From assembly GCF_003790525.1 (NCBI RefSeq), contig NZ_CP033635.1: DNA of 64,000 bases; one strand, 5' to 3'. The number at the start of each line of letters is the position of its first letter. Position 1 is the stretch's first letter. A program made the position numbers. Shown in pieces: positions 19,401 through 22,400 of this stretch. The stretch comes from Escherichia coli (GTDB lineage Bacteria; Pseudomonadota; Gammaproteobacteria; Enterobacterales; Enterobacteriaceae).

Positions 19401-22400
19401 AATTAAATGGAATCCAATACATTTTAGTTAGTACATTCATTATACTCACAGAACTTTCATCGAATGAGGATAAATAATGTGAGTAATAGGGGAATAAATT
19501 TTGCACTATATAATAAATAATTTGCTGAAGATAAGAGAAAAGAAACAATAAAAAAGTCAACACATAAATTTTAAAAGCATGTTTACACGCAAAAAAATAC
19601 GTCTTATCTGGAATTACGAGAAAACAGAAACCAATCAAAGCAGAGCGATGAAAACCTAAAGCAGCAACCATTAATATGAAAGATAACAATAATTTCCCTC
19701 TAAACTTATAGAGAATTGATATTGCAAACAAATAAATTGAAAATGATGCTCTTATTATATTCATCTGGGTATGAAATAAATTAGTAACAACCCAAAAAAG
19801 AAAAAAAACCAAAACAAGAGAATAACCATAGTTTTTCCATAACTGAAAAACAATAACAAACACCAATAAAGATTGTAATAAAGCAGTTAACGCAATAAAA
19901 CCTTTGAATCCCCATCCAGTCAGTTGATATAGCCTCATATATCCATAAAAGAGATATTCCTTATTTTGATAAAAGGTATCGAGTTCATTAGCATTATTAT
20001 ATATATTTTGATAGCTAAAATAATCTGTTCCAACACCGTATTGAAATGCTGGCAACAGAGTCATAAAAAAAACGCATATGCCCCCGATAATTATTTTCCC
20101 ATAAGGAATACGATTATATGCATTAAACAAAAACATATAAAAAAGCACAATAGTATTAATTATAATATATATCATTTTTCTGCAATAAAAAGACGTTCAG
20201 CTTCGATAGAACTAGAGTTTAAATTTACAGGATGAGAAAAGTATTGACCATAAAATACATTATCCAGTTTCGCATTTCTTACAATGTAACTCCAGTCATC
20301 ACAAAAGAAACTATTTTCTTCCATTAACCTCAGAATTCTCTCAGCGCCTTTAATATCCACACAATAACAGCATGTCCTATATAACCAACGATGTGTACCT
20401 AATATTACTTTTCGCACCCCACATATTGATTTTCTCCCCATTATGACACGACTAAAGCTTTTTAGACCATCCTGTCCACCCAAAATATAGACACTTGATG
20501 AGCAGAATGAATTAATCATTTCGTCCAAATATTTAACATTTTCCTTGGGCAAAACGTCATCTTCCAAAACCACCAACCATTTCCTTCCACTCGCCAAAAA
20601 TTCCGTTAAAGCTTTTTTATGACTCAAGAAACATCCCAATTCCGACGGAGTTAAAAAACCTCTTCCAAACATCTTTGAGGACCTAATTTTAAATAAAGAA
20701 AAGTATTTTTCTGCCAATAATTTCCGTCCATCAATAGCATGAGAAACACGACATTCTATGTCATACTTCGCCATTTCATTTTTTAATTTATCTCTCCTTT
20801 CATTATGTTGAGGTAATGATATTATACAAAAGTCAACAAGTTTTCTTTTCATTCTCACTTCCTTTTACTGGACAGTTGTTTTAATCTTTTATAAAAATAT
20901 GAAAGCATATATCTTATAACTGTTATGAATGCAAGACAAAATGCATTATTTAGGGACGTTCTGTAAACCTCCAGAGCAAGCTCAACTATTTGTTTTGGTG
21001 TATATTTATATCCCCGTCCATAGGATATTTTAATTTGAGACCCTCCCAGAGTTCTCACAGAAATTAGCGACATAACAGAAATTAGTTTTAGTTTTAATGG
21101 TATATCTTCCCCCCAAGTCAAATATCTTATTTTATAAGCATCAATGATTTTATTTCTACGATACAACGTATTAGATTGATTCCAACCAAGAGTAAATTGC
21201 TTTGGATACCCTAAACACTCTATACATTCTTGTATTAATCCTCTGTTATATTTTTTTATTGTGAAAATATTACCTGTCTCGTTTTTACAATTAAACTCTT
21301 CCACATAATCACTTCTAAAGACGATGGCATCAACCTCATTATTTTCTAATAAATAATTAACACCCCAATCAAGAGCAAATTCAGCAATATAATCATCAGT
21401 ATCAAGAAAAAAACAAAATTCTGTATCTGAATCCAATAAGCCTACATATCTTGCGTGAGAAGGGCCTTGATTAAGAGTATAGGTGTAATTACACCCGTAA
21501 TTATTACAAATAATTTTATTTTTGCGCGCTTCATCAGAAACTGAACCATCATCAATTACAAAAATCTTACACTGCTTATAGCTACTGATTATTTTAATAT
21601 TTTCCTCTAATATTATGCTCGAATTATAAGTTGGTATTATTATTGATATTCTTTTATTATTCATTCTATTGCCTATTTATTGTATTTTACGTATATGGCT
21701 TTCTTTGTGTTATAAAGGTTTTTAACATAGGATAACCGTTTAACATGCAAGTAAAGGGGTTTAATGATAGTTTTTACCCTGACGGTTGATTTATCCCACA
21801 TTAACTGTTCATATAATTCGCCATCACAATATTTCAGACCCAGTGAACGTTTATATAAAAACAGCTCATTGCTCATCCACTTCCCAAAAAACTCTAACCC
21901 TCGAAAAACGACACCATCATAATTTTTTGCTATCTGCTTTTGCAAAATATCAACACCGTATGCCGAAAAAATATAATGGGCATCGACTTTCATTAAATAA
22001 TCACAATCACCTAAAGAAAAACTAAAATTATAAAATTCGGCCAGTGAACCATCTCCCTTTGTCACCTGATCTTTATACCCTTCTCCAGCAATAGCGAGAT
22101 TTTTATCATAAGAGTAAAGTTGTATAGAGCAAACATCAGCTAATTGATTCGATAATCTTTCTACAATATCTCTTGTATTATCTGTAGAATTATTATCTAC
22201 AACAATTATTTGTGATGCTAACCCCGAAATAGACAATATAGATGCCTCTATATATTCAGATCCGTTTTTGACTCTATATATAACAGAGACACTTGGTATT
22301 TTCCTCTTATATTCATTCTGTTTTCTTAGCTTAGCTGCAACATAATCATCAAAATCTAACCGATTGGAGTACTTCTTATCGTTTTTCGCAGATAAAAAGG

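Follow-up and report, generated by a model that had tools for sequence, protein, structure and literature searches.

The 64,000-nt stretch of E. coli DNA analysed here (the window) carries the O-antigen locus of E. coli O21, and the fourth gene of its O-antigen (rfb) operon encodes a genuine member of glycosyltransferase family GT25 (CAZy GT25, Pfam PF01755). Four independent lines of evidence lead to this assignment: the Pfam match, a profile comparison with the PDB, the predicted fold, and the residues of the active site. The protein is very probably a beta-hexosyltransferase that helps to build the O-unit; the donor and acceptor that it uses, the linkage that it forms and its place in the assembly are inferred. 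The gene is ordinary and already known, as it is annotated and belongs to a published cluster (Li et al. 2011, FEMS Immunol Med Microbiol 61:258, on the clusters of E. coli O21 and Salmonella enterica O38, as cited in PMC7685785). Apart from securing the annotation, it is of little consequence that a single GT25 enzyme works beside GT2-type enzymes in the O21 cassette.

The cluster has the organization of a Wzx/Wzy-dependent O-antigen cluster – it lies in the galF-gnd position, it contains wzx, wzy and glycosyltransferase genes that all run in one direction, and it has an ops/JUMPstart element upstream. In the annotated region of one genome with a matching sequence, the order on the minus strand is gnu, galF, wzx, GT2, GT-A, GT25, wzy, GT2, gnd, ugd, wzzB, and then the his operon. 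Six tightly packed, overlapping low-GC genes follow the ops element, and the GT25 gene is the fourth of these (Table 1). The ops pattern had 3 matches in the window, relative to 0.12 expected, and the ops/JUMPstart core upstream of wzx (GGCGGTAGCGT) is the leader of an RfaH-dependent operon. The neighboring transferases, gtA, gtB and gtD, are indeed of the GT2/GT-A type. Neither the Pfam search nor the RefSeq annotation showed any genes for nucleotide-sugar synthesis in the cluster. Outside this region the window has the usual E. coli backbone, which runs from sbcB to his on one side and on the other from the colanic-acid cluster to pphC.

Table 1. Features of the O21 O-antigen operon and of gnu in the window. 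Identity is that of the E. coli and Salmonella amino acid sequences; dN/dS is for the same pair, in which dS is saturated, so that the ratios are approximate.
Feature	Position	Strand	Length	Basis	Identity	GC	dN/dS
gnu, GlcNAc-PP-Und 4-epimerase, upstream of galF	25151..26146	-		RefSeq product name	95%		
ops/JUMPstart core	23787..23797	-		pattern search; 88 nt upstream of wzx			
wzx, O21-family O-antigen flippase	22464..23699	-		RefSeq annotation	64%	32%	0.12
gtA, first GT2-like glycosyltransferase of the operon	21673..22464	-	263 aa	PF00535, 33.7 bits; RefSeq GT2	73%	31%	0.07
gtB, upstream GT-A/GT2-like glycosyltransferase	20855..21664	-	269 aa	PF00535, 45.9 bits; RefSeq "glycosyltransferase family A protein"	60%	30%	0.17
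GT25-family glycosyltransferase gene (WP_000823826.1)	20172..20852	-	226 aa	ORF, PF01755, AlphaFold2/Foldseek	68%	34% (33.8%)	0.15
wzy, O21-family O-antigen polymerase (EpsG family)	19093..20175	-		PF14897, 105 bits; RefSeq annotation	62%	27%	0.17
gtD, last GT2 glycosyltransferase, WbdN-like	18328..19068	-	246 aa	PF00535, 121.7 bits; WbdN match	70%	29%	0.10

The GT25 reading frame begins with an ATG at 20852 and ends with a stop codon at 20174–20172 (ORF listing); it has the coordinates of the RefSeq CDS, and the N-terminus of its product is MKRKLVDFCIISLPQHNERRDKL. The earlier note had placed the ORF exactly, leaving out the strand (minus), and the N-terminal peptide that it quoted is an exact match to residues 5–24 (KLVDFCIISLPQHNERRDKL). 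The automatic ORF listing extends the frame to an upstream GTG at 20858. A Shine-Dalgarno-like sequence, AAGGAAG, can be read from the DNA and precedes the ATG by about 6 nt. The stop codon of the upstream glycosyltransferase gene (TGA, 20857–20855) is 2 nt before the GT25 start, and in the sequence ATGA (20175–20172) the end of the GT25 gene and the start of wzy share bases, a packing typical of translationally coupled operon genes. The ORF is not a chance one, because it has a Pfam match with an E-value of 1.3e-16, full-length orthologs in other genera, and an approximate dN/dS of 0.15 relative to Salmonella.

Two other properties of the gene and its product were considered and rejected: phase variation, because the gene contains no homopolymer longer than 6 nt and no tetranucleotide repeat, and membrane anchoring, because the protein contains no hydrophobic segment (maximum Kyte-Doolittle 19-residue mean of 0.7).

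Among 5426 complete E. coli genomes, 34 have the 687-bp region of the GT25 gene at 100% identity, every time on the chromosome. In those genomes RefSeq/PGAP names the product "glycosyltransferase family 25 protein", between "O21 family O-antigen polymerase" and "glycosyltransferase family A protein", and the exact protein is found under the same name on at least 1000 public contigs.

The earlier note had proposed the GT25 family and held that the lack of a GT25 profile match would overturn the proposal. A search with the PF01755 (Glyco_transf_25) HMM gave a significant match (61.5 bits relative to a gathering score of 24, E = 1.3e-16), and this was the sole Pfam family matched. The match spans positions 5–121 of the 199 in the profile, and the profile and structure comparisons run on past D185 as far as R220. 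There was no match in NCBIfam and hence no equivalog-level name. A single-sequence search of the PDB returned only human COLGALT1 (E = 2.5e-7), and a profile of 30 homologs (alignment A1) matched only GT25 structures: COLGALT1 (3e-21), mimivirus R655 (1e-16), and a bacterial GT25 beta-1,4-galactosyltransferase (8xc8/8xlz, 2e-15), with alignments that extend to position 187–220. The AlphaFold2 model (pLDDT 94.1, pTM 0.91) has a GT-A fold, a Rossmann-like alpha/beta/alpha arrangement, closest to the solved GT25 structures. In a Foldseek comparison of the model with the PDB, ranks 1–18 were all GT25 structures – the GT25 domain of COLGALT1 was the best, and mimivirus R655 and 8xc8/8xlz were also in this group – and other GT-A enzymes came after them.

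The recently solved GT25 structures are a template for the catalytic residues. In human GLT25D1, cryo-EM and mutagenesis identified L348 and C412 (uracil stacking), G377, R354 (pyrophosphate), D436 (ribose) and D437 (Mn2+), with D522 as the catalytic base of an inverting SN2 mechanism (PMC12987934). Residues L13, R19, G42, C74, D98, D99 and D185 of the O21 protein align to L348, R354, G377, C412, D436, D437 and D522 of GLT25D1, the residue offset having been checked on the HMMER alignments. G42, C74, D98, D99 and D185 are invariant among the 30 homologs in A1, as are E71, G73, S77, H78, E97, A170 and R220, and R19 is in neither the invariant list nor the 90% conservation list of A1. The E-D-D metal- and nucleotide-binding motif of the family (D98/D99) and its aspartate general base (D185) are thus both present. 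A GT-A, DxD-type enzyme that uses Mn2+ and a UDP-sugar with an aspartate general base, as predicted from these residues, implies inverting chemistry and a beta product. The addition of a beta-linked Gal or Glc, which the earlier note had hinted at, would fit the inverting chemistry of the GT25 family.

The best match in the PDB in both sequence and structure, the C-terminal GT25 domain of human COLGALT1/GLT25D1 (PDB 9evj, 8zgc, 9u7h), has 18–19% identity to the O21 protein, with the UDP/Mn2+ ligands and the base D522 kept as D98/D99 and D185. Unlike the O21 protein, COLGALT1 has two domains, is resident in the ER, galactosylates collagen hydroxylysine, carries a 20-residue lid loop, and oligomerises.

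A single-sequence search for homologs yielded 65 proteins, all with PF01755 and most of 220–235 aa; it did not return the 90% cluster of the O21 protein itself, the representative of which is a 347-aa ORF mixed with Wzy fragments. Identity to the O21 protein was 67–68% in Salmonella enterica, 59% in Citrobacter, 50–53% in Xenorhabdus, 50% in Proteus mirabilis, 45–46% in Providencia, 41–49% in Shewanella, Photobacterium and Vibrio, and 38–39% in Yersinia and Kluyvera. A profile search gave 957 matches, and the best 120 of the 957 all have PF01755. The GT25 proteins of O-antigen loci in Citrobacter, Proteus mirabilis, Xenorhabdus, Providencia, Vibrio and Photobacterium are similar to the O21 protein over the full length (37–59% identity, ca. 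220–235 aa), and no tested function was found in the literature for any of these. By sequence comparison, the nearest relatives of the O21 enzyme are O-antigen-locus proteins of Enterobacterales and Vibrionaceae.

Gene order is also conserved. Between galF and gnd, Salmonella loci carry all six operon genes in the order seen in O21, with 60–73% amino acid identity, and Citrobacter likewise has all six in this order. The Salmonella loci compared here bear no serogroup label, and their equation with the O38 cluster rests on the published title. In the cpxA-secB O-locus of P. mirabilis there are homologs of gtB, GT25, wzy and gtD (36%, 50%, 42% and 33% amino acid identity), and the place of gtA is taken by a CDP-ribitol synthase gene and a LicD-family gene. 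Citrobacter and Proteus thus both have the GT25 gene in the same GT-A/GT25/wzy/GT2 module as O21, although other genes of the O-loci with these homologs differ from those of O21, as in Proteus. The gtB gene adjoins the GT25 gene in Salmonella, Citrobacter and Proteus too, and the GT25 gene is co-conserved with wzy across four genera. For the Proteus locus with the homolog, a published Proteus O-antigen paper and its supplements contain nothing on GT25, LicD or ribitol.

WbdN of E. coli O157 acts on GalNAc-PP-Und. The gtD protein is 48% identical to WbdN of O157 Sakai over its full length (E = 4.5e-81), so the beta1,3-Glc step is probably taken by gtD, a probable Glc-beta1,3-GalNAc-PP-Und glucosyltransferase; a reference title in PMC7685785 calls WbdN a characterised beta-1,3-glucosyltransferase. 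Both the O157 cluster and the O21 cluster have a gnu/gne gene upstream of galF. WbdN is a GT2 enzyme and not a GT25 enzyme, and the comparison helps only to put the GT25 step at a later point in the building of the O-unit.

We take the O21 repeat unit to be an all-beta pentasaccharide of Gal, Glc, GlcNAc and GalNAc that contains Gal-beta1,4-Glc-beta1,3-GalNAc, and the linkage proposed for the GT25 enzyme rests on this structure. The literature on the structure of the repeat unit and on its glycosyltransferase assignments yielded mentions in reference lists only. A unit of five sugars that starts from GalNAc agrees with the number of enzymes, four glycosyltransferases together with WecA (and Gnu). 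With no nucleotide-sugar genes in the cluster, the donors must come from the housekeeping UDP-sugars, namely UDP-Glc, UDP-Gal, UDP-GlcNAc or UDP-GlcA. The retention of gtB-GT25-wzy-gtD in Proteus, with gtA swapped for ribitol-phosphate genes, suggests that the GT25 enzyme builds a conserved part of the unit, and the same comparison suggests that gtA may make the variable, last-added residue. Glycosyltransferase genes lie in the reverse order of action in 39% of clusters (PMC7685785). Reverse gene order and the Proteus comparison, taken together, make it most plausible that the GT25 enzyme adds the third sugar, onto Glc.

The proposed sequence of events would begin with WecA and Gnu, which would make the O-unit primer GalNAc-PP-Und, to which the WbdN-like gtD would add beta1,3-Glc. 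The GT25 enzyme would then add the third sugar onto this Glc – a beta-linked Gal, most plausibly Gal-beta1,4 in a lactose-type linkage like that made by LgtE and LgtB in Neisseria – and the two GT2-like enzymes gtA and gtB would complete the pentasaccharide. The GT25 enzyme itself would be a soluble or peripheral protein of GT-A fold that binds UDP-hexose through E97-D98-D99 and Mn2+. D185 would act as the general base, an inverting SN2-type transfer would form the beta-glycosidic bond, and on the cytoplasmic side of the inner membrane the hexose would go onto the growing Und-PP-linked O-unit. The finished O-unit would be flipped by Wzx and polymerised by Wzy. The probable step is narrowed in this way to a beta-hexosyl transfer, likely of Gal, after the WbdN-like step, a result that could be of use for glycoengineering of the O21/O38 unit or for its reconstitution in vitro.

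The GT25 enzyme of the O21 pathway could instead be a beta-glucosyltransferase that uses UDP-Glc, or a beta-Gal transferase that forms a linkage other than 1,4. The family holds both Glc- and Gal-transferases, including the beta1,4-GlcT Lex2B and a beta1,2-GalT (as cited in PMC3244457). In LpsA of H. influenzae a single residue, at position 151, switches the donor between Glc and Gal (PMC4120200), and homology therefore does not fix the donor of the O21 enzyme. Two weak arguments count against Glc or another linkage – the beta1,3-Glc step is likely covered by gtD, and both the bacterial GT25 of characterised structure and LgtB/LgtE are galactosyltransferases. We consider this alternative possible but rather unlikely, and favor Gal as the donor sugar with moderate confidence.

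The best-known bacterial GT25 enzymes act on heptose or hexose of the LOS/LPS core (PMC4120200; also as cited in PMC3244457), and by analogy the O21 enzyme might modify the LPS core or another glycan and not the O-unit. This is very unlikely: the gene is embedded between an O-unit glycosyltransferase gene and wzy, with frames that overlap or abut, it has stayed with wzy in four genera, and the four glycosyltransferases are the number needed for a five-sugar unit.

The earlier note had likened the protein to the Lic2B/LgtB-type enzymes of Haemophilus and Neisseria, a likeness that stands at the level of the family and, for the Neisseria enzymes, fails as a close relationship. The comparison made here was with LgtB/LgtE-type proteins of Neisseria from the database, among them P0179 ("lacto-N-neotetraose biosynthesis glycosyl transferase") and P0243 ("LgtE"). 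LgtB and LgtE are GT25 LOS beta-1,4-galactosyltransferases. They have the Pfam/CAZy family in common with the O21 protein, as well as several motifs (an N-terminal beta-strand followed by RR, xxGC/CxxSH, and EDD), and are alike in the predicted inverting beta-hexosyl transfer from a UDP-sugar. Their identity to the O21 protein is 24–26% over 98–168 residues (33–42 bits), which is no closer than that of the human enzyme. The Neisseria proteins are 275–280 aa long with a basic C-terminal tail, whereas the O21 protein, of 226 aa, has no tail. The acceptor of LgtB and LgtE is the LOS core and not an O-unit carried on Und-PP. Genes of that subfamily lie in LOS/core loci, often with phase-variable simple repeats, whereas the O21 gene is in the galF-gnd operon between a glycosyltransferase gene and wzy and has no such repeats. 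The O21 enzyme is not in the LgtB/LgtE LOS subfamily, because it differs from it in sequence proximity, type of locus and phase-variable repeats alike.

Another suggestion of the earlier note, a possible inter-genus origin for this gene, was not borne out as a gene-specific import. The GC content of the GT25 gene and its divergence from the Salmonella ortholog are like those of its five operon neighbors (Table 1), and so the gene has had the same history as the rest of the cassette and was not imported alone. On the flanks, gnu, galF, gnd and ugd have 89–96% identity to Salmonella and a GC content of 43–51%, and wzzB, a variable flanking gene, has 71% identity. The low-GC, foreign look is a generic property of O-antigen clusters and not a sign of gene-specific import. 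In a neighbor-joining tree, the O21 and Salmonella proteins grouped with 100/100 bootstrap support, as did the O21, Salmonella and Citrobacter proteins; this clade nests among proteins of Proteus, Xenorhabdus, Vibrionaceae and Shewanella, with Neisseria on a long separate branch.

Acquisition of the GT25 gene singly from Pasteurellaceae or Neisseria, as a Lic2B/LgtB-type LOS gene inserted into the E. coli cassette, is highly improbable. The N-terminus does resemble those enzymes at the family level, and a gene of 33.8% GC sits in a genome of about 50% GC. But all six cluster genes are at 27–34% GC, all six differ alike from their Salmonella orthologs (60–73% amino acid identity, 68% for GT25), and the gene order is the same in Salmonella and Citrobacter and, in part, in Proteus. 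The Neisseria LgtB/LgtE-type proteins, at 24–26% identity, are distant in the tree, apart from the fully supported O21, Salmonella and Citrobacter group. The best 120 of the 957 profile matches include no name from Haemophilus or other Pasteurellaceae or from Neisseria, and the gene lacks phase-variation repeats.

That the protein is an inactive relic (a pseudo-enzyme) can hardly be credited, since nothing specific speaks for it beyond the lack of an NCBIfam equivalog model, and all 34 genomes carry an uninterrupted frame, the catalytic residues have been retained, the approximate dN/dS relative to Salmonella is 0.15, and the AlphaFold2 model is confident and compact.

A broader possibility can be put forward tentatively: the short GT25 proteins (ca. 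225 aa) encoded beside EpsG-type wzy in O-loci of Enterobacterales and Vibrionaceae may be a distinct, uncharacterised subfamily whose acceptors are oligosaccharides carried on Und-PP, and not the LPS core. Their genes may travel with those for the GT-A enzyme, Wzy and the WbdN-like GT2 enzyme as a mobile four-gene "backbone module" bearing grafted side-chain genes – a GT2 gene in E. coli, Salmonella and Citrobacter, and ribitol-phosphate genes in Proteus. If this is true, characterising one short GT25 enzyme from an O-locus would define a new acceptor class for the family. A GT25 gene is also present in the O-locus of the E. coli novel-serogroup strain LL004, so O21 is not unique in this respect (PMC8657804).

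The GT25 gene of the O21 cluster belongs to a module of four genes, encoding a GT-A glycosyltransferase, the GT25 enzyme, an EpsG-type Wzy and a GT2 glycosyltransferase, that is common to E. coli O21, Salmonella, Citrobacter and Proteus mirabilis. In P. mirabilis the module lies in the cpxA-secB O-locus, and its proteins have amino acid identities to those of O21 of 36% (GT-A), 50% (GT25), 42% (Wzy) and 33% (GT2). A CDP-ribitol synthase gene and a LicD-family gene in the P. mirabilis locus stand in place of the first GT2 gene of O21, a replacement that looks like a swap of side chain with conservation of the backbone.

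The last glycosyltransferase of the O21 operon, gtD (18328–19068, minus strand), aligns over its full length with WbdN of E. coli O157, with 48% identity (E = 4.5e-81). WbdN is a characterised beta-1,3-glucosyltransferase (title cited in PMC7685785). This similarity suggests that the second step, producing Glc-beta1,3-GalNAc-PP-Und, is common to O21 and O157.

The first GT2 of the Salmonella cluster is called as 188 aa in one assembly (L002, 6597–7163) versus 264 aa in another (L003, 6369–7163). The short call may stem from truncation, from a frameshift or from the use of a different start, so that L002 possibly specifies a variant O-unit with one residue fewer. The Citrobacter cluster has two additional genes ahead of gnd. 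One encodes a 431-aa protein for which no Pfam match was found; the other encodes a pyruvyl transferase, which suggests that the O21-like unit of Citrobacter is a pyruvylated variant.

Features of the O21 window and of the related loci
Feature	Location	Strand	Context
Four-gene module	E. coli window 18328–21664		
Four-gene module	P. mirabilis L004 7190–10497		cpxA-secB locus
Additional gene 1	within Citrobacter L005 10871–12809		431-aa protein
Additional gene 2	within Citrobacter L005 10871–12809		PS_pyruv_trans-family pyruvyl transferase
ops/JUMPstart-type core	window 23787–23797	-	upstream of O21 operon wzx
ops/JUMPstart-type core	window 49227–49237	-	leader upstream of colanic-acid wza
ops/JUMPstart-type core	window 49814–49824	-	leader upstream of colanic-acid wza

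The O21 GT25 (20175–20852) falls in a 90%-identity protein cluster that also includes many fragments of the O21 Wzy and is represented by a 347-aa ORF taken from a Logan assembly. An ORF that was fused or misjoined where the two genes overlap (ATGA) probably accounts for this composition, which explains why the first search for homologues did not return the cluster of the query itself. Among its members is WP_104112164.1, labelled Arthrobacter sp. N199823, most likely through contamination of the assembly.

In the matching genome, the toxin-antitoxin genes yefM and yoeB (L008 6081–6583, equivalent to 6081–6583 of the window) immediately precede the his leader; the pair is absent from the corresponding position in O157 Sakai.

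A pattern search of the window found three ops/JUMPstart-type cores, versus 0.12 expected by chance. Two have the form GGCGGTAGCGT and one the form GGCGGTAGTTT.
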